Assembly (NCBI RefSeq): GCF_016127575.1
Contig: NZ_CP066019.1
Coordinates: 2,520,001-2,552,000 of the forward strand
DNA length: 32,000 nucleotides
Direction of reading: 5' to 3'
DNA from: Cupriavidus necator
GTDB lineage: Bacteria > Pseudomonadota > Gammaproteobacteria > Burkholderiales > Burkholderiaceae
Below, in pieces: positions 16,860 through 30,988 of this stretch; position 1 is the stretch's first letter; each line of letters begins with the position of its first letter. The position numbers and the translations under genes were made by a program. The notes under the pieces were generated by a model. That model saw nothing but the letters and a program-made list of their open reading frames with translations. It did no database searches and was not told the origin of the DNA.

Positions 16860-17312
16860 TTACTCCAGCACGCGCATCGTCCGCTCGCCGTCCGGTGCCA
16901 ACTGATGCAGCACTTTGCCCTTGAAAACGGTGGCCTTCAGATCGTCCAGCACGTCCTTGGCGCCACCATAAGGGGCGAACACGTCGATCAGGAACGCCTT
17001 GTCGCCCGACTTCCAATCCCCGGGCGCCAATTGGTACGGCGGCATGGCAAACCGCTCGACCACAGCGTCGGAGAGGTAGGCCCAGGTCACGAAGGCTGTG
17101 GGCATTTCACCCCGCATGTACAGCTTGGCCTGCTCCAGGATCAGCGGCGGCATCACGCGCCACTCCAGGTCAGCGAAGAAGCTGTGGCGCGTCGTTGGAT
17201 TGTTCATCATCAGCCAAGACACCGGGCCCAGCAGCGGGATCTTCTTGATCACGCGCTGCGCTTGCTCGGCAGCAAACTTCATCAGCTGTTCGTTGTCGGT
17301 CGGAATAGTCAT
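16860..17312 (-). CDS. RTX toxin-activating lysine acyltransferase (HlyC/CyaC/RtxC family)
   Basis: 150-aa ORF. It aligns by eye with E. coli HlyC. LGPVSWLMMNNPTTRHSF matches LGHVSWLWASSPLHRNW. MPTAFVTWAYLSD matches YPVAYCSWANLSL. GDWKSGDKAFLIDVFAPYGG matches [20 protein letters not shown]. The His and Asp that are catalytic in HlyC appear to be present. Its start overlaps the TolC stop (ATGA). Confidence 0.9.
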   Translation of the reverse strand: MTIPTDNEQLMKFAAEQAQRVIKKIPLLGPVSWLMMNNPTTRHSFFADLEWRVMPPLILEQAKLYMRGEMPTAFVTWAYLSDAVVERFAMPPYQLAPGDWKSGDKAFLIDVFAPYGGAKDVLDDLKATVFKGKVLHQLAPDGERTMRVLE

Positions 17313-18591
17313 TGGATACTTGTCCTGGGTTGTTTCATGCCGGCAGCAGCGGGCATGGCAGGCACTGCCGGTGTTTCCTGCTGCGCATTGTTGGTCAGCA
17401 GCGCATTCACTCCCTGGACATCCGCCTCAGTCAGCGTGCCGGCCGCCGCCTTCAGCCGCATGCCTTGCAGGATAGTGTCGTAGCGTGCCTTTGCGAGATC
17501 ACGCTGCGCCGCAAAGAGTTGCTGCTCGGCATTGAGCACGTCGATGTTCACGCGCGTGCCGATCCGGTAGCCAATTTTGTTGGCATTGACCGAATCCAGG
17601 CTCGACGTGACCGCAGAAGTCAGCGCCTCGACCTGGGACAGGCCACTCGTCACACCACCATAGGCTTGCCGTGCCTGCGTCGCCGCCTGGCGTCGCGCCG
17701 CTTCCAGCTCCGCGCGCGACTTGTACCGATTGGCGATTGCCTCAGTCACGCGCGAGTTGACGGCGCCGCCCTGGTAGATCGGGATCGTCAGCTGCAGCCC
17801 GATGGTGCCGGACTTGACCCGGTTCTCGATGTCCGCGGGCGAGGTCATCGAACCTGAGGTGTAGTTGTTGCCATAGCCAGCCGTGAAGTCCAGTGTCGGC
17901 AGGTGCGCCGCGCGGTTCCTGGACACCTCTTTCTCGGCAACTTCGACCGCTGCCAACTGCGTGCGCACTTGCGGGTTGTTCTCCCGCGCGTGACCCATCC
18001 AGGCATTGACATCCTTCGGCTCGGGACCCGGCAGGGTCACGTCAGCCTTCAGGCCCGCTACAGGCTCGGGCAATGGCCCGACCAGCCGTTCGAGTTCCGC
18101 CTGCTTCGCCTCCTGATCGTTGAGCGCCTGCACCAGCTGCGAGCGCCCAAGGTCGTGGCGGGACTGCGACTCGTATACATCGGTAATGGTCGCCTCGCCC
18201 ACGTCGTAGCGACGCTTGGCAAGCACACGCTGCTGCTCCACTGCCCGCAATTGCGCCCTGGCAACTGTCACGCTGTCGCGCGCGGTCAGCAGATCGAAGT
18301 ACGCCTGCGAGGTGCGCAGGATCAGGTCGCTCTCGGCCTGGGCGAACTGTCCTGGCGATTGCCGTTGCCGTTCAGGTTGATCGAGGGCAGCACGCCGGCG
18401 CGAGCCTGCAGCAGCTTCTCGCGTCCGGCCTCCAGCGCGTAGCGTGATGCCTCGAAGGTTGGGTCGCCCCCCTGCGCCATCCTGTAGACCGACAGCAGGT
18501 CGATGGCGCTGGCCTGGCTCGGGACAAGAGCGCCGACCGCGGCCAGCGCAGCCACAGCAGCGCTGGTCAAATCATGCATGCGCACCATCAC
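17309..18591 (-). pseudogene. tolC: TolC-family outer-membrane channel, apparently internally deleted and frameshifted
   Basis: Two ORFs in different frames. ORF 18591..18322 carries a signal peptide plus DLLSVYRMAQGGDPTFEASRYALEAGREKLLQARAGVLPSINLNGNGNRQ, then runs out of frame to a stop. ORF 18271..17309 carries the rest of TolC. That second frame stays open and TolC-like upstream to about 18349 (QFAQAESDLILRTSQAYFDLLTARDSVTVARAQL). About 40 aa are missing at the junction near 18350-18357. Confidence 0.6.
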
Positions 18592-19925
18592 CGCTCCCGC
18601 AAGGCTTCATCCTTGTAGCGCATCAGCGGCGACAGGAAGTAGGAAATCATGCGGCGTTGGTCCACGCGGATATCCGCGGTCACGCTCATCCCCGGGGTCA
18701 ACGTCCCCTTGCGCCCATTGACTGAGTTCGGCGTGGCCATCGTGTCGAGCTTGATGCGCACAGGATAGATGGGGCCAAGCTTCTGATCATTGATGGCGTC
18801 GGTACCCACCCACTGCACTTCGCCCTCGATATATCCGAAGCGGGTGAAGTCAAAGGTTTCCACCTTGGTAATGACCCGCTGGCCGCGCTTCACGTAGCCG
18901 ATGTCCTTGTTCTGCACCTGAGCATCCACTTCCAGTGCAGTGTTCTCGGGCACCACGATCGCCACCGGCTGCGCCTGGGTCACCACGCCGCCAACGGTAG
19001 TCACCGCCAGTTGCTGGACGATGCCGTCGATCGGTGCGCGCAGCGTCTGCAGGTCACGCCGCATCGTTGCCTTGACCAGCTCCAGCTCGGCCGTGGCAGA
19101 CTTGCGGCTTTCCTCGGCCAGCTCTGCCGCATGCCGTGCGCTGAACTCTGCCACCGCCTGTGCGCGCTGCTGCTGCGCGGCGTTGAGGCCCGCGCCAGCT
19201 TCGGCCAGCCGGTTGGTCTGCAGAGCCAGTTCCTTCCTGAGGTTGATCAGCTCCAGCCGCGTCTCGATCAGGCCGGTTTCGGCGATATGCCCGGTCTTGA
19301 CGAGTTCCTCGCGCATGTCGTTCTTCTTGCTGACAAGCGGCAGGCTGGCGCGGATCTGCTCCAGACTGGCAGCGGCCCCTTCCCGGTCGGCACGCTTGCG
19401 GGCAATTTCAGCGTCGAGCGCCGCCAGCCTGGCGCGTTGTTCGGCCAGCGCGCTGGTGAGCAGCGCCTGCTGCGTCCGGGCGATATCCGCAGGCAAGCCT
19501 TCGACGGCCTGCATGGTGGGCTTGCCGTCGAGAAGCGCAGTCAGCCGTCGCACCCCGGCTACGGCCTCCCATTGATCGCGCTGCAGCCGGTCACGGTCTG
19601 CTGCAGTGGTGGTCGGGTCGAGTTCGACCAGGATGTCGCCAGCCTTGACCTTCTCACCGTCGCGCACATGGATCTCGCGTACGATGCCGGCTTCGAGCGG
19701 CTGCACCACCTTGGACTTGCCCGAGGGAATGACTTTTCCCTGCGCGGAGACCACCACGTCCATTTTCGCCATCGTGGCGTAGACCAGCGCAAGGACGGCC
19801 ATACCGCAGATACTGCCAGCGACGATCCGTGCCATGCGCGCGGGACGGCGGTTGGCGATGCCCATGGCGGCCGTGGCAAAGGCATCGGCTGCCGCTTGCT
19901 GGTCAGGCTTCATCGGCTCAGACAT
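18588..19925 (-). CDS. HlyD-family type I secretion periplasmic adaptor
   Basis: Lies in ORF 18588..19988. The ATG at 19925 gives MSEPMKPDQQ. One TM helix (IVAGSICGMAVLALVYA), a lipoyl-like motif (GKVIPSGKSKVVQPLEAGIVREIHVRDGEKVKAGDILVELD), a long coiled coil, and the C-terminal HlyD signature (GMSVTADIRVDQRRMISYFLSPL). It overlaps the hlyB-like stop by 8 nt. Confidence 0.9.
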   Translation of the reverse strand: MSEPMKPDQQAAADAFATAAMGIANRRPARMARIVAGSICGMAVLALVYATMAKMDVVVSAQGKVIPSGKSKVVQPLEAGIVREIHVRDGEKVKAGDILVELDPTTTAADRDRLQRDQWEAVAGVRRLTALLDGKPTMQAVEGLPADIARTQQALLTSALAEQRARLAALDAEIARKRADREGAAASLEQIRASLPLVSKKNDMREELVKTGHIAETGLIETRLELINLRKELALQTNRLAEAGAGLNAAQQQRAQAVAEFSARHAAELAEESRKSATAELELVKATMRRDLQTLRAPIDGIVQQLAVTTVGGVVTQAQPVAIVVPENTALEVDAQVQNKDIGYVKRGQRVITKVETFDFTRFGYIEGEVQWVGTDAINDQKLGPIYPVRIKLDTMATPNSVNGRKGTLTPGMSVTADIRVDQRRMISYFLSPLMRYKDEALRER

Positions 19926-22113
19926 GAGCGGCTCCCGGCAACGGTTGCACAGGGGCCTTGTGCTTGATAGTGAGGGTTTCCAGCACACGCGACGCCTCGA
20001 ACAAGGCGCGATACTTGCCCTCGCCAGTGATCAGGTCAGTGTGATGGCCTTGCTCGACCAGTTGCCCGCCATCGAGCACCAGGATGCGGTCGGCCAGGCG
20101 CAGCGTGGAGAGGCGGTGCGCGACGATAAAGACGGTGCGGCCCGCACAGATCTTCTCGAGGTTGTCGTGGATGACGCGCTCAGACTCGTAGTCCAGGCTG
20201 GCGGTGGCCTCATCGAGCAGCAGCAGGCGCGGGTTGGTCGCAAGCGCCCGCGCGATGGCGATGCGGGCGCGCTGGCCGCCCGACAGCAGGCTGCCGCGCT
20301 CACCGATCACGGTGTCGTAGCCTTGGGGCAAGGCATTGACAAAATCGTGTGCCCCGGCCAGCTTGGCGGCTGCCATCACGGCCTCCAGCGACAGGCCCGG
20401 ATCGGAGATGGCGATGTTGTCGCGCACCGACATGTTCATCAGCGCGGCGTCCTGCGACACCACGCCTACCTGGCTACGCAGCCAGGCTGTGTCCACCGTC
20501 GCCAGGTCGAGCCCGTCGATCGTGACCGTTCCACCAGTGGGTGAGTAGAGGCGCTGCAACTGGCGGATCAGCGTCGTCTTTCCGGCACCAGAAACGCCGA
20601 CAACGCCCACGACTTCCCCAGCGGGGATGGAAAAGGAGACATCCGACAGCACTTGGGCGCCGTCGGCCTGATAGGCAAAGCTCACCCGGTCGAAGCGGAC
20701 AAAGCCCTGAATCGCTGCCCGTTGGGTCTGGTCCGAAAGCTGGCCCGCCTCGGCCGGCGTATCCATGATGCCGCCCAGCCGCCTGACCGCCACGCGCATC
20801 TGCTGGAATTCCTGCCACAGCGACGAGAGCTTGATGATCGGTGCATTGACCCGGCCCGACAGCATGTTGAAAGCAATCAGCCCGCCCACGGTGAGGTTGC
20901 CGTCGATCACCTGCATGGCACCGACGCCCAGCAGCACCACGGTCAACACCTTGCTGGTCAGATTGATGACCTGGTTGGTCCAGTTGCCGGTATGGCCCGA
21001 TTCGAATGCGGCTACCGCGTAGCGCACCAGCCGGCTTTCCCAGCGGCGCTGCCAGTTGGCTTCAACGGCCTGACCCTTGAGGGTCTCCATCGCGCCGATG
21101 GTCTCCACCAGGAACGCCTGATTGTCGGCGCCCAGTGCGAACTTGTCTTCCAGCTTCTTGCGCAGGATCGGGCTGATCACATACGACGCACCAAAGAAGA
21201 TCGGCAGGAAGCAGATCACGATAATGGTCAGGAGCGGGCTGTAATAGAACATGACCGCCAGGAACACCAGCGCGAAGAACAGGTCCAGCCAGGCGGTCAG
21301 CGCCTGCCCGGTCAGGAAGTTGCGCGCCGTCTCCAGTTCGCGCATCGAAGCCATCACGTCACCGGCGCGGCGCGAGTTGAAGTACGACATCGGCAGGCGC
21401 ATCAGGTGCCGGAACAGGCGCGCGCCCAGTTCGACATCGACGCGATTGGTCGTATGGGTGAGCAGGTACTGGCGCAGGCCATTCAGCATCGCCTCGAACA
21501 GCGCCACGCCAGCCAGGGCCACCAGCATCACGACCAGCGTCGCCTGCGAGCGGTGGGCCAGCACCTTGTCGATCACGACCTGGAAGGCAAGCGGCGTCAC
21601 CAGTGCAAAGAGTTGCACGACGAACGATGCCAGCAAGACTTGGGTGAGTTCGGTTTTGTACTTCTTGATGGCCTGCCAGAACCATGCAAAGCCGAACGCC
21701 GAGGTGCCGGCATTGGCCGTGCCATCGGTCAGGGATGCCACGCTGCGGCCGGCTTCGATCCAGGTATTGGCGAACTCGCCGGCGAACGCCGCCGCTGGCA
21801 CTGCCTGCGGTGGCTGGTCCGGGTCCCGCTGCACGTGGACGACATCGGCATCCACCTTGCCGACCAGCACAACCCGGCCACTGCGGGTCAGGGCCAGCGC
21901 GGGCAATGCTGCGCGACGCAGCTTGTCCACCCCGCCCTCGACCAACCTGGCGTCGAAGCCAAGGTCATCCAGGCCCCACAGCAGCCGGCTGGCGTCAAAG
22001 TCATCACGCACGTCCCAGCGGCGTGCGAGGCCCTCGGGATCGGCCTTGACCTCATGCAGGCGCGCGAATACGGCAAGCATGCCAAGATTGGGCAGTGTTG
22101 GCTTCCGATTCAT
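19918..22113 (-). CDS. type I secretion ABC transporter (HlyB family) with N-terminal C39-like domain lacking the catalytic Cys
   Basis: 731-aa ORF with a six-TM exporter core. Walker A is GVSGAGKTTL, the ABC signature is LSGGQRARIAIARAL, Walker B is LLLLDEATASLD and the H-loop is IVAHRLST. The first ~125 aa (LAVFARLHEVKADPEGL...) resemble the C39-like domain and contain no cysteine. Confidence 0.95.
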   Translation of the reverse strand: MNRKPTLPNLGMLAVFARLHEVKADPEGLARRWDVRDDFDASRLLWGLDDLGFDARLVEGGVDKLRRAALPALALTRSGRVVLVGKVDADVVHVQRDPDQPPQAVPAAAFAGEFANTWIEAGRSVASLTDGTANAGTSAFGFAWFWQAIKKYKTELTQVLLASFVVQLFALVTPLAFQVVIDKVLAHRSQATLVVMLVALAGVALFEAMLNGLRQYLLTHTTNRVDVELGARLFRHLMRLPMSYFNSRRAGDVMASMRELETARNFLTGQALTAWLDLFFALVFLAVMFYYSPLLTIIVICFLPIFFGASYVISPILRKKLEDKFALGADNQAFLVETIGAMETLKGQAVEANWQRRWESRLVRYAVAAFESGHTGNWTNQVINLTSKVLTVVLLGVGAMQVIDGNLTVGGLIAFNMLSGRVNAPIIKLSSLWQEFQQMRVAVRRLGGIMDTPAEAGQLSDQTQRAAIQGFVRFDRVSFAYQADGAQVLSDVSFSIPAGEVVGVVGVSGAGKTTLIRQLQRLYSPTGGTVTIDGLDLATVDTAWLRSQVGVVSQDAALMNMSVRDNIAISDPGLSLEAVMAAAKLAGAHDFVNALPQGYDTVIGERGSLLSGGQRARIAIARALATNPRLLLLDEATASLDYESERVIHDNLEKICAGRTVFIVAHRLSTLRLADRILVLDGGQLVEQGHHTDLITGEGKYRALFEASRVLETLTIKHKAPVQPLPGAAHV

Positions 22114-22277: not shown

Positions 22278-25200
22278 TCATGACGGTTGGCCCATGCCCA
22301 AGTCCACCGCGCTGGCCTGTGCGGCGCGGTCCATCATTTCGGCAAGGGTGTCCTCACGCGGAGGGACAAAGCCGCCAGGGGCCTGAGACCCATCGGCCGT
22401 CGTCAGCAGCTTGTTCCACTGGAGGCAACTCCATTGCACGGCTTCCGCGCTGTGCGGCGGATAGGGACAAGCTGAAGATGGCGTCTCGGCGGTGGCGAGC
22501 AGCTGTGCCACGGCGTCGGCGGCAAAGGCAGCATCGATCGGCTCGTTCGGCGCGATTCCCTGCTGGACCTCTTCCAGGTACAGGGCGAAGCCGGGCAGCG
22601 GCACATCCTTGCCAGCGAACATCACGTCTGCGGCCTCACTCTTGCTGCCATCGGTGTGCGTGACCTCCACCGTGCCGAACACGACGTTGCCATGATCGAG
22701 GTGGGCCTCGCCCTGTCGCTGGAGTGCGATGGAGGCAATGCCAGCCTGATCCAGTGTCTTGTGCTCGGCCTCGCTGAACTCGCCATTGCCATTGACGTCC
22801 TGCACTACCTTGAACTGGCTCCAGGCAGCGTCTTCCTTGCTGATCCTGCCGTCGCCATTGGTGTCGAAGGTGGCCAGCGCCTCAAGGTCTGTCTTCGTGC
22901 CGGGCGCGAAATTGGTCAGGCGCGTCTCTTCCACAATGATCTTGCCGTCGCCGTCGGCATCGAAGCCTAGTACGCCGTCGGTCGCGGCGGCCCATCCGAT
23001 TTGCTCAGGCTGGCCGTCATGATTCGCGTCGGCCCTGACGTTGGATTGATCCGCCGCTAGCAACTCCACGCCGTTGCCATTCAGGTCTATCACGAGGGGC
23101 GTGTAGCCGCCACTTGCATTGGTGCCCTTGTGGGTAGCGTTAATCACCACGTCCATGAATGCCCCCTGAGCATCGGCAATACGGATGGTGAAGGCGTCAG
23201 TACCGGTGTAAGGGTCTCCCGCATGGCTCTCGTACTGCCAGTTGGCATAGCGGCTGACGAGCTCACCTGAGTGTTCAAAGCCATATTCGGTTTCCCGATA
23301 GGTGTTGGCATAGGCGTAACCGTGTTGCGGCGCCTGAACAATCGATATGACAATGGCCGCTGTATCGCCATCTGGATCGTAGGCAATGATCCGGCCCGTT
23401 TCTCTTCGGGGATCATTGGCGGGGACAAGAACCCGATCTGACTCATAGCTTGCCCCCGCGAAAAAGTAGTCGCCATCCATCTGGTCTAGTGCCAGTGGCT
23501 TGAGCATGCCATTCTGATAGTGCGATGGTGTATAAGGCCGCCCGCCGGCATCAAACAGTTGGCCTTGCAAGTTCAGCGACAAGGCCAGTGCTTCGTCATA
23601 GACTGGCTGAAAGACAGGGCCATCACTGTATACATACTGCCCGGCAGAGCCCGCACCTGCACCCGGAGCAGCCTTGCCCACCACGACCGGCGGGCCGACG
23701 TAATACCCAAAGATGGCGCGACCATACTCGACGGACTCGATGATCGGCGCCTTGTTCACATGCTCAACATGCAGGAAGGCCGTGGCCCAGGTCTGCCCTC
23801 CGTAGGGATCGGACACCAGGTACTGAAAGGACGCTTGCCCATAGAAGTCGTGGTCAGGCGTGAACCGGACTTGGCCATCGGCCTGGATCTCGACCGTACC
23901 GTGCTGCGCATTGGCAACCTGGGTGACTGCGAGCGCGTCGCCATCCGGGTCCGCGTCATTGGCAAGAAATTGCGCCGTATTGATGACGAACGGCGTGTTC
24001 TCATAGCCCGAGAAGCCATCATCAACCGCGACCGGTGTCGTGTTGATCTTCTCCAGGTTGATGGTCGTGGTCGCCATGGCAAAGCCGCCTACACCATCCG
24101 AGATGGTGTAGGTGAAGTGGCCTTGTGCACCCGGGTAGCCGCCAAAGCCAGGCTCCGGCAGGAAGGTCACCGAGCCGTCCGCATTCAGTCGCACAGTGCC
24201 GTGCTCGGCCCCGGACACGCCCACAATGCGCAGATCGCCATGCGGGTTGTCGATGTCGAAGTCATCCGCCAACAAGGCCGCCGCGGTCAGCGTAATGGCC
24301 ACGCCCCTGCGTCCGTCCACGATATTGTCATTGGCGATCGGCGCATCATTGACTGGCGCCACGTGAATAGTCGCCGTCGCGGTCGAGACGCCCCCCACGC
24401 CATCGCTCACTTCATACGTGAAACTGGCATCACCAAAGAAATTTGGATCGGGCACAAAACGGATGGTCCCGTCCGGGTTCAGCGACACGGTACCGTGCGT
24501 GGCGCCGTTGACGCGGGTGATGGAAAGCGCCTCCGGTGGGTTGTCCACATCCGTATCATTGGCAAGCAGTGCGGCGACATCTATGGTCAGCGCGGTGTCC
24601 TCGTTGCTCGCAATCACATCGTCGCGCAGCCGCGGAGCATCATTGACGGGAGCCAAGTCAATGTCCACCCGCCCGGTGGTGATGGCGCCGTGCGGGTCCG
24701 ACACGGTGTATTCGAAGCTGGCGGCACCGAAGTAATCCGCTTCCGGGATAAAGGTGACGGCTCCGTCGGCATTCAGACGCACTTCGCCGTGCTGGGCGTT
24801 GCCGACCGCTACCAGCGTGAGCGTGGCTTGCGCATCGTCCACGTCCCGGTCATTGGCAAGCAAGCTGGCCGCGGTGAAGGCCGCTACCTCGTCCTCATTG
24901 CCACGGAAGTCCTCGCCAGTCACGATCGGCGCGTCATTGACCGGCGCCAGATCGACCGTGGCCATCGCCTCGGTATAGCCGCCCGCGCCGTCGTAGACGG
25001 TGTAGAAGAAGGTCGCGGTGCCGAAGAAGTCCTGCTCCGGCACGAAGCGGATCTGTCCTTCGGGGGTCAGCTCGACCGTGCCGTGCTGGCCGTTGCGCAC
25101 CGAGAACACGGTCAGGTCCGAGTGGGGGTTATCCACGTCCCAGTCGTTGGCCAGCAGCGTCGCCTGCTCGATCAGCAGTATGGTGTCCTCGTCGGTGGCG

Positions 25201-28200
25201 ACGGTTTCACCCGCCACCACCGGCACGTCATTGACGGGGCGGATTTCGAGGTTGACGGTAGCGGGCGTCAAGCCGCCGTTACCATCCGACACCCAGTAGA
25301 CAAAGCTGGCCGGCCCGAAGTAATCCTGGTCAGGCAGGAAGCGCACGTTGCCGTGGGCATCGAGGGCCACCAGGCCGTGCGTGGCATTCGAAACACGCAG
25401 GATGCTCAGCACGTCGCCGATGGTGGGCGTATCCACATCGAAATCGTTGGCAAGCAGCTGTCCCGAGGTGAACAGCAGGCCGGTATCTTCATCGAAAGCG
25501 GCCGTTTCACCGGCAGTGACCGGCGCATCATTGACCGGCGCAATGTCCAAGTAGACGCGGCCAGTCGCCTGCAGGCCATACTCATCCTCGACGGTGTAGC
25601 GGAAACGCGCCGGCCCCCAATAGTCTGGGTCAGGGGTGAACACAATGCGCTGGCTGCCGTCGGGCAGCAGTGTCAGGGTCACCGTGCCATTCTCGCCGCC
25701 GTAGACGTTGATCAGGCGCAGTGGCTGGGTCAGGACGTCGCGCGAGGTATCGTTGGCCAGCAGCACTGCCGCATCGATGGCATAGCGCGTGTCCTCGATG
25801 CCTGCGACCTGCTCATCGGCTACGTCCGGCGCGATGATCTGAATATCCTCGCCGTTCGGCCCAGCTGCCACGCGGCCGGGCGTTGTGGTCAGGATCGTAT
25901 CGTCACTTGCGGCATCGTAATTGACACCAACCGCCGGCACTGATCTGATCAGATCCAAAGTGACTTCGACTGGCGACCCGAGCGTTGCCTCGCTGCCAAC
26001 CGGGCGCGTCGCCGGTGGCAAGGCGTTGACTGGCACCTGTACAAAGGGCGGCTGAGCCACAGTCGGTTGCGGCTGGTCCGGCGAATCAACCGTCGTTCCA
26101 AGTTCCACCGGCAGGCGGCTGATGGTGTTGTTGCCGGTTGTATCGATAGCGGGGGCTGGCGCATCAGGCTGCCCGCCACCTTCTGCCGCGTTGGCAACGC
26201 CGGTCACGGCACCCGCCGCGACACCCAGCAGCGCGCCGGTGCCCGCAAACAGGCTGTCGCTGCTCTTGATCCACTGATCGCGGATCGCAGCGAAGGCATC
26301 AGTTGGGCTAGCTGGCGGAGCGCTGGTAACACGGCCGTCCGCCGGGCGCACCGTGTCAGTACGCTGCGCAGGCCTGCCGGGATTTGGGTCCTTCGAGGTC
26401 AGGCGGCTGTCATCCGGCTCGACACGGGTGGCAGTAGCCCGCCCGACCGGGGTCGTGCCCTCGCCATCAGCCACGCGGTCATCGCCAGCGACGATCGCGT
26501 CTTCGGCAAGCGTCTGCTCGTGCTGCTTGTCGCTGGCGGTTTTGATGCGACTGTCGCCTTCGGCAACTTGCATCTCAGCGCTGGCGTCTTCCAAGGCTAC
26601 GCCGCCATGGGTATGGCCAGCTTCGCCCGTGTAATCATGAGTGACGACGGCATTCAGGACCGTCTCGCCGCCTTCCTTCGCGTGCAGCATGCCGGCAAAG
26701 GCATCGAGCCGGCCATCGCCGTCCGTGTCCACAAACGCCACCTGATAGGCGTCGCCGCGCACATCCGCTGTCAGGTGGTGCTCGGTGACCATCATGACGC
26801 TGCCATCGGCGGCGCGCAGGACGGGTGGCGTGCTGGTGAAATCCAGGCTGGCGATACCCCGGTCGAGGAACGATGCGAACTCGCCCTGATCGGTCTGGCC
26901 GTTGCGGTTAACGTCCAGCCAGATGCCCAGGGCGGCAAAGGCCGGGTCGGAAGTGTCCAGCTTGCCGTCGTGGTTGACATCGAGCCATTGCACGCTGTTG
27001 CGGGCATGGGCGGCGGAGGCATCCGGGTCGTTGGTCAGGATCTCGTTCTGCCCGATCCTGCCATCGCCGTTCACATCGATGGAGAGGATGCCCTGGTTGG
27101 CGTTCACCCAGTCCGTCTGCTCGATGTAGCCGTCCAGATCGACGTTCTTGCCGATCCGGCCAGGGTTCACACCTGCAGGCAGTTCCGGCTTCAGGTCGAC
27201 CGTCAGCGCAGTAAAATGCTGGCGGATGCCGTCAGCGTCTGCCTCAGGCATGCCTGCGTCGGCCTTAGCCTCATGCCAATCCGGGCTGTGCAGTTGCAGG
27301 CCAGCTCGCGACCGGTTCTCTTCAATGCTGCCCGTTGCCGGAGCAGTGACGACGCCAGATTCGCGCATGTGGGCGAGCACCGATTCCGCTTCCCAGGCCG
27401 GGACGATGGCAGCGAACGCCTGCTGCATGAACTGCTGCGCAATGGTCGCCTGGCTGGTGTCATAGCGCAAACCAGCGCCATCATAGTAGCGTCTCTGCTC
27501 CTGGCCGTTGTCGTCGATCCACTTGAGATACAGCTGACCGCCGTTATCGTTCAGGCGCGCCCCATCAGGATCGAAGAGATAGCCGATGGTCGGCAGGCGC
27601 TGTGGAATGATGGCGTAAAGTGGGTTGCCGTTGGCATCCACCTGCTGGGCAAGCGACACCTGCAGGGCGTCGATCAGGCTTTGCAGGATGTTGGCAGGCG
27701 TCGCGCCGCCGTCCTCGGCATCGGTGGTCTTGAGCACGTGAATGCTGCCGTCCGGATTCCACACAGCGGTGGCTTCACCTTCTAGCGTCGGAAGATCCTT
27801 TGCGGACAGCATTGAGCCGATCATTGTCACGGCGATAGCCGCGAAGGCAACAGGTGGGCAATAGGAGGTATAGCCTGCCACCGTCATGCCCGCAGCGATG
27901 GTACTCAGTGCCGCCCCGGCAACCTGATACTCATTGCCATCCTCGATGGCCATTACCAGCGTGACAATGCTTGCGACCAGCGCCAGCCCACCAGCAATCT
28001 GCCCTGTCGTCGCAGCGCTATCCAGCAGAGTGCCAGCGGATGCCGACTCAGCCTGGAATGCAACAATTCCTTGTTCCTTGAGCGCGTTGGCGTAGATGGC
28101 TGCCGCCTGGCTGCCGAGGTTGGTACTGGCAGCAGCGATGCCCAGTCCGTTGCCGTCTTGAATGGCGTTGAACAGGTTCAGGCCAGCAGCGAGGGCATTC

Positions 28201-29558
28201 AGTCCGACGCCGACGCCATCGGGCAAAAGTTTGCCGCTGCCGAGGCGATCCAGATTGATCAGCATCGCTGCGCTGGCGGCCACAATCGCCTTCGTGTCGC
28301 CGGATTCGATTGCCTGGATCAGGGACAGCATGCTTTGGACGCTGCCAAGCGCGTCCACAGGGCTTATTGCCTCTGGCACGGGTGTGGGCTGCGAGTCAGG
28401 CCGCGTATCATGCTCGTCGAATGGCAGACCACCGATAGCTGGGCCTGTCAGGTCCAGCTCACCGCCTGCGCTAACAGTGACCATCTCACCATGCAAGCCA
28501 GTAAGGCGGACATTACCGTCGTCGGTTGCCACAGTAGCAAGCACATTGCGCTGCCCATCCACCAGCACTAGTGTGCCGTCTCCGAGAGTGTAGAGGGTAA
28601 CGTCCCTGCCATAGAGATGCTCAATGGTGCCTTGCCAGTGGGCGGCCCGCTCAGCAAAAGCCTGATGTTGAGCGGCAAGCATTTCCTCTGTAGGCGTAGC
28701 TGCATCGGAATGCGTGCCACTATGGTCAGCAAGCTGAATGCGATCCCCACCAAGCCCAGCTAGCGCATTGCCAACACCGATAGCGCCGCGGGCGTCCGAG
28801 AACGGCAACCTATCGAGCAATTGCTTGAATTGATCTTGGACATGACTGCCAATTTCCCGCAAGGTATTGGCTGCATCCACTCCCATGGATTCGAAGAAGC
28901 CTGCCTGGTCGATTCGACCAACAGCATCCATGAAATTCTGCAACTCTTTCCCGGACGCTATGCCCGGTGCCTTTTCCAGCCAATCGCTTGCCATGGCGCG
29001 CACCACCGGATCAGGCGAGGTCGATGCGCCGTACATGAACGCCAGCGTGGCGGTGTTGGCCGCAAGTGCGTCGCTGTAACCACCACCCGTGTCGCGCAGC
29101 ATGCTCCAGAACCGCTCGACTTGTGCCGGGCCACCCATTTTCTCCATCAGGCGGAAGGGGGTATCTAGGGTCCAGGCGGAAGGGGGAAGACCATTGTCTT
29201 TGAAGACCTGGCGGTGAAAGTTCCAGACTTCCCTGCTATCGATGTCACGTGTGACAGGCAGACTACCGTCGATAGTCTGTTGATACAGCGCATCAAGATA
29301 GCCTTTTGCCATGTCCAGCTTAATCTTCTCAACCTGCGCCCCAGTCAACGGCCTCCCCAGGTCCTTGGCAGTGTTGTGCATATACGTCAGCGCTGAGGCG
29401 CCGGCGATACTAGTGGCGTCGGCCACACCACCGGCCCAGCCTGAGTACTTGTATCCGTAGCCTTCGAGCCGGCTATAGACTTGCGACGGAGTAAGCGTGC
29501 CTGCGTTAAGCTGAAACCTAATATCTTTCAACGACCGTGCAGATATCGGATTTGGCAT
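22278..29558 (-). CDS. giant (2426 aa) T1SS substrate: putative acylated pore-forming toxin or adhesin with cadherin-like repeats and DxDxDG calcium modules
   Basis: Single uninterrupted ORF immediately upstream of the hlyB/hlyD-like genes. Hydrophobic Gly/Ala-rich region at aa ~400-590. Seven ~99-aa repeats with the pattern PVNDAP...EDT...LLANDxDVD...HGTV...DG...F.P...YFG.ASF.Y.VSDG.GG. Two modules rich in DVNGDG, DVNHDG, DTDGDG, DADGDG and DTNGDG motifs. No N-terminal signal peptide. Acidic overall, with a 111-aa C-terminal tail. Confidence 0.9.
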   Translation of the reverse strand: MPNPISARSLKDIRFQLNAGTLTPSQVYSRLEGYGYKYSGWAGGVADATSIAGASALTYMHNTAKDLGRPLTGAQVEKIKLDMAKGYLDALYQQTIDGSLPVTRDIDSREVWNFHRQVFKDNGLPPSAWTLDTPFRLMEKMGGPAQVERFWSMLRDTGGGYSDALAANTATLAFMYGASTSPDPVVRAMASDWLEKAPGIASGKELQNFMDAVGRIDQAGFFESMGVDAANTLREIGSHVQDQFKQLLDRLPFSDARGAIGVGNALAGLGGDRIQLADHSGTHSDAATPTEEMLAAQHQAFAERAAHWQGTIEHLYGRDVTLYTLGDGTLVLVDGQRNVLATVATDDGNVRLTGLHGEMVTVSAGGELDLTGPAIGGLPFDEHDTRPDSQPTPVPEAISPVDALGSVQSMLSLIQAIESGDTKAIVAASAAMLINLDRLGSGKLLPDGVGVGLNALAAGLNLFNAIQDGNGLGIAAASTNLGSQAAAIYANALKEQGIVAFQAESASAGTLLDSAATTGQIAGGLALVASIVTLVMAIEDGNEYQVAGAALSTIAAGMTVAGYTSYCPPVAFAAIAVTMIGSMLSAKDLPTLEGEATAVWNPDGSIHVLKTTDAEDGGATPANILQSLIDALQVSLAQQVDANGNPLYAIIPQRLPTIGYLFDPDGARLNDNGGQLYLKWIDDNGQEQRRYYDGAGLRYDTSQATIAQQFMQQAFAAIVPAWEAESVLAHMRESGVVTAPATGSIEENRSRAGLQLHSPDWHEAKADAGMPEADADGIRQHFTALTVDLKPELPAGVNPGRIGKNVDLDGYIEQTDWVNANQGILSIDVNGDGRIGQNEILTNDPDASAAHARNSVQWLDVNHDGKLDTSDPAFAALGIWLDVNRNGQTDQGEFASFLDRGIASLDFTSTPPVLRAADGSVMMVTEHHLTADVRGDAYQVAFVDTDGDGRLDAFAGMLHAKEGGETVLNAVVTHDYTGEAGHTHGGVALEDASAEMQVAEGDSRIKTASDKQHEQTLAEDAIVAGDDRVADGEGTTPVGRATATRVEPDDSRLTSKDPNPGRPAQRTDTVRPADGRVTSAPPASPTDAFAAIRDQWIKSSDSLFAGTGALLGVAAGAVTGVANAAEGGGQPDAPAPAIDTTGNNTISRLPVELGTTVDSPDQPQPTVAQPPFVQVPVNALPPATRPVGSEATLGSPVEVTLDLIRSVPAVGVNYDAASDDTILTTTPGRVAAGPNGEDIQIIAPDVADEQVAGIEDTRYAIDAAVLLANDTSRDVLTQPLRLINVYGGENGTVTLTLLPDGSQRIVFTPDPDYWGPARFRYTVEDEYGLQATGRVYLDIAPVNDAPVTAGETAAFDEDTGLLFTSGQLLANDFDVDTPTIGDVLSILRVSNATHGLVALDAHGNVRFLPDQDYFGPASFVYWVSDGNGGLTPATVNLEIRPVNDVPVVAGETVATDEDTILLIEQATLLANDWDVDNPHSDLTVFSVRNGQHGTVELTPEGQIRFVPEQDFFGTATFFYTVYDGAGGYTEAMATVDLAPVNDAPIVTGEDFRGNEDEVAAFTAASLLANDRDVDDAQATLTLVAVGNAQHGEVRLNADGAVTFIPEADYFGAASFEYTVSDPHGAITTGRVDIDLAPVNDAPRLRDDVIASNEDTALTIDVAALLANDTDVDNPPEALSITRVNGATHGTVSLNPDGTIRFVPDPNFFGDASFTYEVSDGVGGVSTATATIHVAPVNDAPIANDNIVDGRRGVAITLTAAALLADDFDIDNPHGDLRIVGVSGAEHGTVRLNADGSVTFLPEPGFGGYPGAQGHFTYTISDGVGGFAMATTTINLEKINTTPVAVDDGFSGYENTPFVINTAQFLANDADPDGDALAVTQVANAQHGTVEIQADGQVRFTPDHDFYGQASFQYLVSDPYGGQTWATAFLHVEHVNKAPIIESVEYGRAIFGYYVGPPVVVGKAAPGAGAGSAGQYVYSDGPVFQPVYDEALALSLNLQGQLFDAGGRPYTPSHYQNGMLKPLALDQMDGDYFFAGASYESDRVLVPANDPRRETGRIIAYDPDGDTAAIVISIVQAPQHGYAYANTYRETEYGFEHSGELVSRYANWQYESHAGDPYTGTDAFTIRIADAQGAFMDVVINATHKGTNASGGYTPLVIDLNGNGVELLAADQSNVRADANHDGQPEQIGWAAATDGVLGFDADGDGKIIVEETRLTNFAPGTKTDLEALATFDTNGDGRISKEDAAWSQFKVVQDVNGNGEFSEAEHKTLDQAGIASIALQRQGEAHLDHGNVVFGTVEVTHTDGSKSEAADVMFAGKDVPLPGFALYLEEVQQGIAPNEPIDAAFAADAVAQLLATAETPSSACPYPPHSAEAVQWSCLQWNKLLTTADGSQAPGGFVPPREDTLAEMMDRAAQASAVDLGMGQPS
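23745..25826 (-). repeat. seven diverged in-frame tandem repeats of ~297 bp (cadherin-like domains)
   Basis: The reverse complement of the PVNDAP codons (..catcattgac..) recurs at about 24350, 24650, 24938, 25230 and 25530. Degenerate copies lie near 24040 (INTTPV) and 23750 (VNKAP). This corresponds to aa 1245-1938 of the giant ORF. Confidence 0.85.
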
Positions 29559-29570
29559 GAGCAGACCGTC

Positions 29571-30455
29571 TTATCGCTGTTGAAGAGTAGGCGTGGCGGC
29601 GGGCTCGCCGGGCTGCACCCGGAAACCTAGGATCAATTCACGTGCCTTACGTTCGTATTCCATCCACTGACTCAACGTACGGGCATCGTATTGGAGATTC
29701 ACTTCGGCCTTCATTGAGGGATAGAGAGAAAAGCGATGGATGCAGACATTGCGCGGACTTTCCTCGAACGGCTCCCCATTTGCGTTGCATTCAATGAATG
29801 ACACGTCCTTGCCATCATTCGTAAAGAAGAACAGGCGATCCCTCGATACAACAGGACCACTCGGATAACGCACAATCTCTTCGGATCTGTACTCGGCTAG
29901 TCCATAGCGTGTCTCGGGCTGCCGGTCGTATCGCCTATTGCGGAACCTGGCAAGCCCCTTAACTGTGACATGCTGATCGTAGGGATTGCCTAGCACCATC
30001 TTTTCTTTATGTACGTTCAGTGATTGATTGGCGCTCACCCCAATCGGCAGCCATTCCTCTGGCCCCTCCATCGACTTCTGCGCTCGGTAGTAACTTGCCT
30101 CGTTCGCCGCCGTCCTCGGCGCAAAGTCCGGCAGATGCACCATCAGGGGTAGTGAATTGATCTTCGAAGCAAAGGTGCGCACCGGCGCCTTCCAGTTGCG
30201 ACGCTCTGGATCAAATACACTCGGATCTCCTTCGTACTCGGTCACCAAGTGGGTGTAGTTCAGCGGGACGGAAACCGGCACACCGCCAAGGTCACCAATA
30301 ATCGGATCACGTCCCCGTGGAAGATCAAAGGGACCGGCCCATGCAGCCAAGCGCGCATTAATGGCCACCATAGCAACTGCAATGAGCAGCAACATAGGCG
30401 CCGCATACATCAGGCAGCGGCGAACTGATCGTTTCATTGATGAACTATTCAACAT
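29571..30455 (-). CDS. membrane-anchored protein of unknown function, first gene of the T1SS locus
   Basis: 294-aa ORF (an alternative ATG lies at 30437) in a ~47-48% GC stretch where chance ORFs of this length are unlikely. One N-terminal TM/signal-anchor: RRCLMYAAPMLLLIAVAMVAINARLAAWAG. The remainder is hydrophilic with mixed charge. Its stop lies 12 nt before the toxin ATG. I recognise no family. Confidence 0.6.
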   Translation of the reverse strand: MLNSSSMKRSVRRCLMYAAPMLLLIAVAMVAINARLAAWAGPFDLPRGRDPIIGDLGGVPVSVPLNYTHLVTEYEGDPSVFDPERRNWKAPVRTFASKINSLPLMVHLPDFAPRTAANEASYYRAQKSMEGPEEWLPIGVSANQSLNVHKEKMVLGNPYDQHVTVKGLARFRNRRYDRQPETRYGLAEYRSEEIVRYPSGPVVSRDRLFFFTNDGKDVSFIECNANGEPFEESPRNVCIHRFSLYPSMKAEVNLQYDARTLSQWMEYERKARELILGFRVQPGEPAATPTLQQR

Positions 30456-30988
30456 ACTGCAGCCTACTCTTTACTCTCATGATGAGCACATCAGCAGCAC
30501 CCCAAAAATCTGATTGCGGATATCGTCTTTGGCATGTAATCGTTCCTTACTCTCAAAGCTTGAGTGCAACGCACTCACCCAAGGCCACCAGCGAACCGAA
30601 ACTTGGGAGAGCGCTGGAACAGGCCCCTAAGAATCCCGGCGCACGCATCATACCAAATCCACTTTCCGGATCATGCGGGAATATTCCCCAAGAACTACCG
30701 GAAGATTCGGAAAATAAATAATAAGATCAGAAATTAAATTCTCTAATACCAGTCCGGGGATCGAGTCCATGCTGGGTCGCGCCAGGATACCGCGAGCGAT
30801 CCGGCCCACTCCTTTGTTTATGGCAATTGTTTACATTTGCTCTTGACATGTCCTACAGCGCGCTCTTGAACAACTCCAGCGGCACACAGTCGCGATGCTT
30901 GTCGTTCGGCTATATTGCAGCGCCGCCCTCAGAATGGGTCGTGGCCGAGCCTGTGCAGTCGATGCCGGGAATAGCGTTGTCGCGGGCC

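Follow-up and report, generated by a model that had tools for sequence, protein, structure and literature searches.

The DNA considered here is a stretch of 32,000 nucleotides from Cupriavidus necator (contig NZ_CP066019.1), referred to below as the window, and the subject of the analysis is an ATG-initiated open reading frame (ORF) of 294 aa at positions 29571..30455 of its minus strand. Immediately downstream on the same strand lies a second ATG-initiated ORF (22278..29558) encoding a giant substrate of a type I secretion system (T1SS), 2426 aa in length, and the stop codon of the first gene is separated from the ATG of the second by a spacer of 12 nt (29559..29570, minus strand). An earlier note on this DNA had described a 294-aa membrane-anchored protein encoded 12 nt upstream of a toxin gene; both figures were confirmed, the product contains the peptide that the note quoted, and the strand, which the note did not state, is minus. 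In GenBank the gene starts at Met7 (position 30437) and the product is annotated as 288 aa. A 100% identical protein occurs in C. necator H16, after which the locus is named below. C. oxalaticus and C. taiwanensis have intact orthologues with ~70% identity, while Variovorax and metagenomes yielded relatives with an identity of 25-37%. An exhaustive profile search of 1.84 billion cluster representatives returned 682 relatives at E<=1e-3, including 147 at E<=1e-30, nearly all of them 250-330 aa long. Judged by this conservation the ORF is a genuine gene and no chance reading frame. The gap to the toxin gene is similarly short in C. oxalaticus, Variovorax and metagenomic loci, and the 12-nt spacer suggests co-transcription and translational coupling of the two genes.

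The product contains a single hydrophobic export or anchor segment, identified by hydropathy at residues ~14-36 (30348..30416, minus strand), where the Kyte-Doolittle profile reaches a maximum of 2.47 in a 19-residue window. This is preceded by the basic motif KRSVRR and followed by a hydrophilic remainder, in agreement with the one N-terminal transmembrane or signal segment and hydrophilic domain of the earlier note. A candidate signal-peptidase site, A38-W39-A40 followed by cleavage before G41, can be read from the sequence, and no lipobox is present in the N-terminus. Across the family, 22 of 110 N-termini carry a lipobox and 80 a transmembrane or signal segment, 102 of 110 in total. On these features the H16 product is predicted to carry an export signal that would place it in the periplasm. 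The AlphaFold2 secondary structure and the conserved columns of the family delimit a putative folded periplasmic domain at residues ~50-280 (29616..30308, minus strand).

No Pfam or NCBIfam family matches the ORF, which is in keeping with the view of the earlier note that it resembles no familiar component; a single-sequence phmmer search of the PDB was also empty, and none of 62 diverse family members matched any Pfam family. The remote homology and structure comparisons that the note had recommended all led to one protein. A profile of 17 ORF homologues found a sole match in the PDB, 6PDK (E=5.6e-8), which is Smlt3025, the immunity protein of Smlt3024, an effector of the type IV secretion system (T4SS) of Stenotrophomonas maltophilia (Bayer-Santos et al. 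2019, PMC6759196). Alignment of the ORF family profile with Smlt3025 by hhalign gave a probability of 97% (E=8.5e-11) and pairwise BLASTP gave E=3e-6. An AlphaFold2 model of the ORF (pLDDT 76, pTM 0.72) was compared with the PDB by Foldseek and 6pdk was the only hit at E<=1e-3 (E=1e-9, probability 1.0, TM-score 0.55), the runner-up standing at E=1.6e-3. The model consists of an N-terminal beta-hairpin, eight further beta-strands and a C-terminal helix, in agreement with the published description of Smlt3025, with its beta-hairpins, eight-stranded antiparallel sheet and C-terminal helix. Taking profile, pairwise and structural comparisons together, the product is a distant member of the Smlt3025 superfamily. 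Cys223 and Cys238 are kept in at least 90% of the 62 diverse family members and also in Smlt3025, and their conservation fits a periplasmic disulfide, which they probably form.

A corresponding relationship was found for the N-terminus of the giant. A Smlt3024-like toxin domain at aa 1-225 (28884..29558, minus strand) is supported by BLASTP, by hhalign and by a 26-sequence alignment. The giant head and Smlt3024 align from the same N-terminal positions, with E=3e-6 over aa 38-160 by BLASTP and E=4.4e-6 over 150 columns by hhalign, and in NCBIfam the head scores best, though weakly, with the Smlt3024 family (NF050128). In the 26 toxin-head sequences, Smlt3024 included, nine residues never vary (G53, A56, H115, F119, W129, T130, G143, E148 and W151), and the N-terminal ~215 aa of the giant show conservation in every case in which the gene upstream is an ORF homologue. 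With the ORF resembling Smlt3025 and the giant head resembling Smlt3024, both H16 genes match a proven toxin/immunity pair. The S. maltophilia work showed that toxicity of Smlt3024 is confined to its periplasm-directed form, that only exported Smlt3025 rescues cells from it, and that the two proteins form a stable complex; it also noted that 221 large RTX proteins, in genera including Cupriavidus, Snodgrassella and Neisseria, have an N-terminal domain resembling Smlt3024 (PMC6759196). The Smlt3025/Smlt3024 pair, which belongs to the bacteria-killing T4SS of that organism as X-Tfi/X-Tfe, is homologous to the H16 pair in both partners and shares with it an immunity gene directly upstream and an exported, membrane-tethered immunity protein of ~290 aa with the same fold. 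The two differ in that Smlt3025 has a lipobox where the H16 protein has a transmembrane or signal anchor, with an identity of ~20%, and in that Smlt3024 is a 440-aa effector with a C-terminal XVIPCD, whereas the H16 domain forms the head of a 2426-aa T1SS substrate, in an operon with HlyC. There is no XVIPCD match in the H16 giant.

The association of the two genes was surveyed from both sides. On the toxin side, the toxin-head alignment was applied to one genome per species and yielded 26 loci spanning Variovorax, Cupriavidus, Zoogloea, Polaromonas, Stutzerimonas, Snodgrassella, Stenoxybacter, Neisseria and other genera. In the co-occurrence analysis for which the earlier note had called, a hidden Markov model (HMM) of the ORF family detected a member at 26/26 loci, directly upstream and on the same strand in 25/26. 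Genes for the T1SS ATP-binding cassette (ABC) protein or HlyD were present in the short flanks of at least 11 of the 26. On the immunity side, the family alignment retrieved nine metagenome loci, one of them without room downstream, and the toxin head followed immediately in 6/8 informative loci, the other two being orphans. Pairwise identities of the immunity proteins and of the toxin domains were correlated over 25 loci (r=0.77), and none of 2000 Mantel permutations gave a value as high. The surrounding gene order varies. On an Azotobacter plasmid it is ABC, HlyD, family member and a giant VCBS protein, and on a Martelella plasmid it is HlyC, a 268-aa exported protein too divergent for the family HMM, a 1683-aa RTX protein with the toxin head, and ABC; the Martelella HlyC gene (L048 3690-4115) sits directly upstream of the putative immunity gene. 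A Providencia plasmid gives weak support for the arrangement of immunity gene upstream of toxin gene. On this plasmid, from Providencia alcalifaciens, the immunity-like gene is preceded by a 198-aa ORF with a signal peptide (L047 3542-4138) that is itself recognised by the toxin-head profile (E=3.5e-10) and may represent a Sec-exported, free-standing version of the head.

The same gene pair is also found with XVIPCD toxins of T4SS type, namely Smlt3024 of Stenotrophomonas and a 447-aa protein of Neisseria oralis, these effectors being 440-447 aa in length. It follows that the partner tracks the toxin head and not the T1SS, which argues against a T1SS-specific role as chaperone, gate or retention factor. 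Two Neisseria loci were noted in this connection, in N. flavescens (L032 5021-6912) and N. oralis (L033 5030-7269), in which a lipoprotein family member and a small toxin-head protein (328 or 447 aa) are inserted just past nuoG- and nuoH-like genes. At its C-terminus the N. oralis toxin-head protein scores 24.8 bits for XVIPCD, just under the cut-off of 24.9, and this borderline match is a pointer to T4SS delivery in a Neisseria. The earlier note had held that homologues occurring mainly outside T1SS contexts would tell against its proposal; the close family is not so distributed, although the wider superfamily is shared with T4SS.

These distributions bear directly on the idea of a T1SS-specific accessory, a periplasmic chaperone or gate serving the secretion or folding of the giant. 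Such a role would be in keeping with the close linkage to T1SS genes, seen in the window and at those 11 or more related loci, and with the 12-nt coupling to the substrate gene. The family, however, accompanies the toxin domain on XVIPCD/T4SS effectors and occurs as orphans with no T1SS nearby, and what it is linked to is the N-terminal ~215 aa of the substrate; the ABC/HlyD genes, with which it has no such link, vary between upstream and downstream positions. To our knowledge no T1SS of the HlyBD-TolC kind requires a periplasmic chaperone or gate component of that sort, and an accessory of this type is regarded as highly improbable. The same two observations, of XVIPCD effectors and of orphans without a T1SS, leave the periplasmic chaperone, retention partner and secretion regulator suggested in the earlier note fitting less well than its first suggestion, producer self-protection, which is supported by the Smlt3025 homology, the Smlt3024-like head and the synteny.

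The ORF product is therefore considered likely to be the immunity protein cognate to the toxin domain at the N-terminus of the giant substrate. That the two gene products function together, as the earlier note had supposed from their position, is supported by their being homologous to toxin/immunity partners that are syntenic in other genomes. The product would be exported by Sec via its N-terminal hydrophobic segment and would either remain tethered to the inner membrane on its periplasmic side or be released there. At this site the beta-sheet domain of the product, with the probable Cys223-Cys238 disulfide, would bind and block toxin heads that enter the periplasm, for example those delivered by siblings. 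The giant itself would leave the cytoplasm through HlyB/HlyD/TolC, bypassing the periplasm, and would probably be acylated by the HlyC of the operon. Because it skips the periplasm during export the cytoplasm of the producer would be safe, and the immunity protein would guard against toxin from siblings. The giant presumably reaches the envelope of a neighbour by means of its cadherin-like repeats and hydrophobic segments, and the latter together with HlyC suggest an acylated, membrane-active step. Homology, synteny and the experiments on the prototype indicate that the ORF product would be an exported protein that binds the toxin head, and that the head would be a growth inhibitor acting in the periplasm.

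From its N-terminus the giant comprises the toxin head, two hydrophobic segments (aa 517-542 and 566-588), a first module resembling FrpC's self-processing module (SPM), cadherin-like repeats, a second SPM-like module and a C-terminal region. The cadherin-like 'tandem-95' repeats (aa ~1245-1934, nt 23757-25826) are seven in number and ~98 aa each, and the giant also has EF-hand-like Ca sites. The first SPM-like module, of Ca-binding type (aa 807-909; 26832..27140, minus strand; E=5.4e-10 to 6sjx by phmmer), matches the FrpC module in part and lacks Asp-Pro at its start. Module 2 (aa 2154-2317; 22608..23099, minus strand; phmmer against 6sjw, E=1.2e-15) begins with Thr2153-Pro2154 at the position of the canonical Asp-Pro scissile bond. 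The modules of H16 may be non-cleaving, Ca2+-dependent folding modules, and as the Asp-Pro site is absent any release of the head would have to work differently there. No GGxGxD nonapeptides were found in the giant. Relatives of the giant have a different arrangement, and in eight loci (L013, L014, L016, L019, L020, L023, L025 and L036) a canonical SPM start with Asp-Pro directly follows the Smlt3024-like head at residues ~229-276 of the toxin ORF, as in VDPLMLDLDGDG (residue ~261) and VDPLMLDLDGDGLELK. FrpC cleaves its Asp-Pro bond upon Ca2+ binding (PMC7078468), and by analogy the order of head and then Asp-Pro SPM in these relatives, which is the architecture of FrpC, suggests Ca2+-triggered release of the head outside the cell.

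The FrpD/FrpC pair of Neisseria meningitidis (structures 5EDF and 5EDJ for FrpD, 6SJW and 6SJX for the SPM) is similar to the H16 pair in having a gene for a small exported protein directly upstream of that for an SPM-containing T1SS substrate. FrpD binds FrpC's N-terminal domain with a Kd of ~0.2 nM (PMC5233953), and Bayer-Santos et al. proposed that the two form a T1SS toxin/immunity pair (PMC6759196). FrpD has also been proposed as a docking partner, binding FrpC(1-414), and the ORF product might likewise bind the N-terminus of the giant for attachment to the producer or for adhesion, with no part in detoxification. Several observations make this unlikely. FrpD is unrelated in sequence to the family, with an hhalign probability of 0.3% when FrpD residues 43-271, identical to 5EDJ_A, were compared with the 62-sequence family profile, and 5EDF is unlisted in the PDB profile searches at E<=10 and absent from the top 50 Foldseek hits of the ORF model. 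FrpD is an outer-membrane lipoprotein, whereas the H16 protein, having no lipobox, has no route to the outer membrane or the cell surface, and a protein tethered to the inner membrane could not reach a substrate in the T1SS conduit or outside the cell. Moreover, small T4SS effectors and orphans are further settings of the pair in which retention would have no meaning, and the domain homologous to the giant head is, in Smlt3024, a demonstrated toxin. Membership of the ORF in a FrpD family was accordingly rejected on sequence; FrpD is best treated as an analogue of the ORF family, possibly a very remote relative, with no demonstrable membership.

Other giant T1SS substrates provide a further comparison. 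The LapA/LapG/LapD system also combines a giant repeat-rich substrate having a special N-terminus with accessory periplasmic proteins, but the N-terminus of LapA is a retention module whereas that of the H16 giant is Smlt3024-like. Pfam and NCBIfam scans of the ORF found no LapG-type protease and no LapD domain, and an RtxH-like identity was likewise without a supporting match, in keeping with the earlier note, which had judged the protein neither LapG-like nor, as far as it could tell, RtxH-like.

Under an immunity role for the family, its orphan copies and tandem arrays recall those of polymorphic toxin systems. In Snodgrassella and Stenoxybacter two to four tandem immunity-family copies, mutually 68-92% identical, stand ahead of a full-length toxin gene (L027 1269-5868, L031 2323-5940, L029 3683-5937 and L030 3853-5937), and in three of these four loci most of the tandem copies are trailed by 5' toxin fragments of 63-103 aa. 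By analogy, these arrays of immunity genes and toxin fragments resemble the orphan cassettes of contact-dependent inhibition (CDI), Rhs and Maf loci as an N-terminal mirror image. Elsewhere, an orphan family copy with no toxin downstream adjoins two Imm11 genes (PF07791, E=2e-5 and 3.5e-3) in a neighbourhood that looks like an immunity-gene island (L044 1198-2486 and 3059-3919), and another orphan adjoins a ParE/Phd pair. CdiA-CT/CdiI, Rhs and MafB share with the H16 family an immunity gene adjoining the toxin, arrays of orphan cassettes, a domain common to several secretion systems and a cassette GC of its own. They differ in that the H16-type toxin is N-terminal and its immunity protein periplasmic, whereas CDI, Rhs and Maf immunity proteins are cytoplasmic. 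As the signals of T1SS substrates are C-terminal the toxin domain is N-terminal, and the immunity gene and orphan cassettes consequently lie upstream and not downstream. A separate observation concerns a Variovorax metagenome-assembled genome, where an 88-aa ORF overlapping the start of the immunity gene (L004 3364-3630) shares 53% identity with residues 629-702 of the H16 giant (E=7e-23) and is, by this match, what is left of a further giant toxin gene situated upstream of the immunity gene.

The remaining genes of the operon lie downstream of the giant, all on the minus strand. They encode a HlyB-type T1SS ABC permease/ATPase (19918..22113; TIGR01846, 819 bits), a HlyD-family T1SS periplasmic adaptor (18588..19988; TIGR01843, 368 bits), a TolC-like outer-membrane channel (17309..18591) and, as the last gene, a HlyC-family RTX toxin-activating lysine acyltransferase (16860..17312; PF02794, E=4.5e-32). 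The presence of HlyB, HlyD and TolC-like genes shows that the T1SS context was correctly recognised. From the HlyC gene it would follow that the giant, with its cadherin-like repeats, receives fatty-acyl groups in the manner of pore-forming RTX toxins; HlyC was seen again only on the Martelella plasmid, the flanks of most loci ending inside the giant genes. The tolC-like gene is split into two ORFs in different frames, an N-terminal one of 89 aa with a signal peptide (18322-18591) and one of 320 aa (17309-18271), with ~50 residues of a typical TolC apparently lost in an internal deletion at the junction. It is probably a pseudogene, or the split reflects a sequencing error. On the other side, the 533 bp upstream of the immunity gene (30456..30988, minus strand) have a low GC of 0.52 and are presumed to hold the promoter, but a promoter and terminator scan of this region was at chance level, with one promoter-like site (30745-30718) not above chance. 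A conserved third small gene was looked for upstream and not found, the 88-aa, 93-aa and 154-aa ORFs of three loci being mutually unrelated.

Base composition varies along the locus. The earlier note had remarked on a low GC shared by the ORF and the 5' end of the toxin gene, and the values, with GC at third codon positions in brackets, are 0.542 (0.59) and 0.572 (0.66) respectively, compared with 0.645 (~0.8) for hlyB/hlyD. The host flanks are at ~0.70, and the whole island from ~16.9 to 30.8 kb is lower. A GC below that of the rest of the operon is as expected of a swapped cassette, and suggests that the immunity gene and toxin 5' end were acquired or exchanged separately from the T1SS genes. 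The orthologous locus of C. oxalaticus lies in an unrelated chromosomal neighbourhood.

An atypical GC, together with the state of the tolC-like gene, raises the question of whether the H16 locus is a decaying, horizontally acquired island in which the ORF, though descended from an immunity gene, is now functionless. The SPM-like modules without Asp-Pro could be read in the same way, as could the truncated copies of both genes in related Cupriavidus strains. In Cupriavidus sp. IK-TO18 (P0007, P0018) and Cupriavidus sp. NPDC089707 (L017) both genes are cut short, leaving an immunity protein of 207 or 216 aa and toxin fragments of 455 or 116 aa, and in the latter strain the truncated genes have been rearranged onto opposite strands. 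The immunity-toxin module thus seems to decay as a unit, and the joint decay in IK-TO18 is also in keeping with an immunity gene. In H16, however, neither the ORF nor the 7.3-kb toxin gene is interrupted, none of the nine invariant toxin residues has been lost, and the ORF is 70% identical over its full length to the intact C. oxalaticus orthologue; the exporter could also use other TolC paralogues. That the H16 gene is a relic is on balance improbable.

A number of points nevertheless weigh against the assignment of the ORF as an immunity gene. The first group concerns the proteins. The identity of the ORF with Smlt3025 is just 18-23%, and the NCBIfam equivalog NF050129 (cut-off 500 bits) has no match to the ORF even at E<=10, nor to the family sequences P0010 and P0016, the control P0021 scoring 559.8 bits; the ORF is thus a superfamily relative and not an equivalog. 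The H16 protein also has no lipobox, unlike both Smlt3025 and FrpD. A model of the toxin head, built from a two-sequence alignment, is all-helical with a pLDDT of 62, and Foldseek found no fold match for it. The second group concerns activity. The demonstrated toxicity is that of the T4SS effector Smlt3024, which itself only slows growth, and toxicity of the T1SS-borne copies of the domain is a prediction. As T1SS export bypasses the periplasm, immunity is meaningful only if the toxin re-enters cells, and we know of no entry route for a toxin exported in this way. With Asp-Pro missing from both SPM-like modules and the tolC of the operon apparently disrupted, the system of H16 may have no activity or may work in another way, such as by serving as an adhesin. 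Finally, H16 and C. oxalaticus are 70% identical in the immunity protein, 75% in the toxin and 67% in the ABC exporter; the pair is no more divergent than the exporter, and so there is no sign of diversifying selection between these two.

Much of the framework for these findings was published in 2019, including the prototype of the family, the occurrence of the toxin head on RTX proteins and the FrpC/FrpD toxin/immunity hypothesis (PMC6759196), and no later literature was found on T1SS-linked homologues of Smlt3025. What is added here is the placing of an unannotated H16 gene as a distant member of the family, the strictness with which immunity and toxin genes are syntenic at T1SS loci, the position of an Asp-Pro SPM directly past the head in many relatives, orphan cassettes lying upstream and the size of a family that has no Pfam entry. 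A function is thereby given to a conserved family of 'hypothetical proteins', ~680 clusters at 50% identity, that is absent from Pfam and is missed by the NCBIfam model for Smlt3025. A wider proposal, to which slightly less than even odds are given, is that T1SS giants with Smlt3024-like heads are widespread, unrecognised interbacterial toxins, often with a Ca2+-triggered 'clip-and-link' release of the warhead, and that the ~680-cluster family comprises their periplasmic immunity proteins. C. necator H16 is genetically tractable and the idea is directly testable there. Two literatures previously connected by hypothesis only, that on the Smlt3024/Smlt3025 T4SS pair and that on FrpC-type 'clip-and-link' RTX proteins, are joined, and by its strictness the synteny suggests an antibacterial head, with a dedicated antidote, in many giant proteins of RTX or cadherin-repeat type that bear the annotation 'adhesin' or 'haemolysin'. 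The Asp-Pro SPM after the toxin head in relatives hints at a natural function for the anhydride-forming SPM chemistry that protein engineering now exploits (NeissLock). If the proposal is true, FrpC/FrpD-type and SPM-containing RTX proteins, whose role has lacked an explanation since the 1990s, would serve in bacterial competition.

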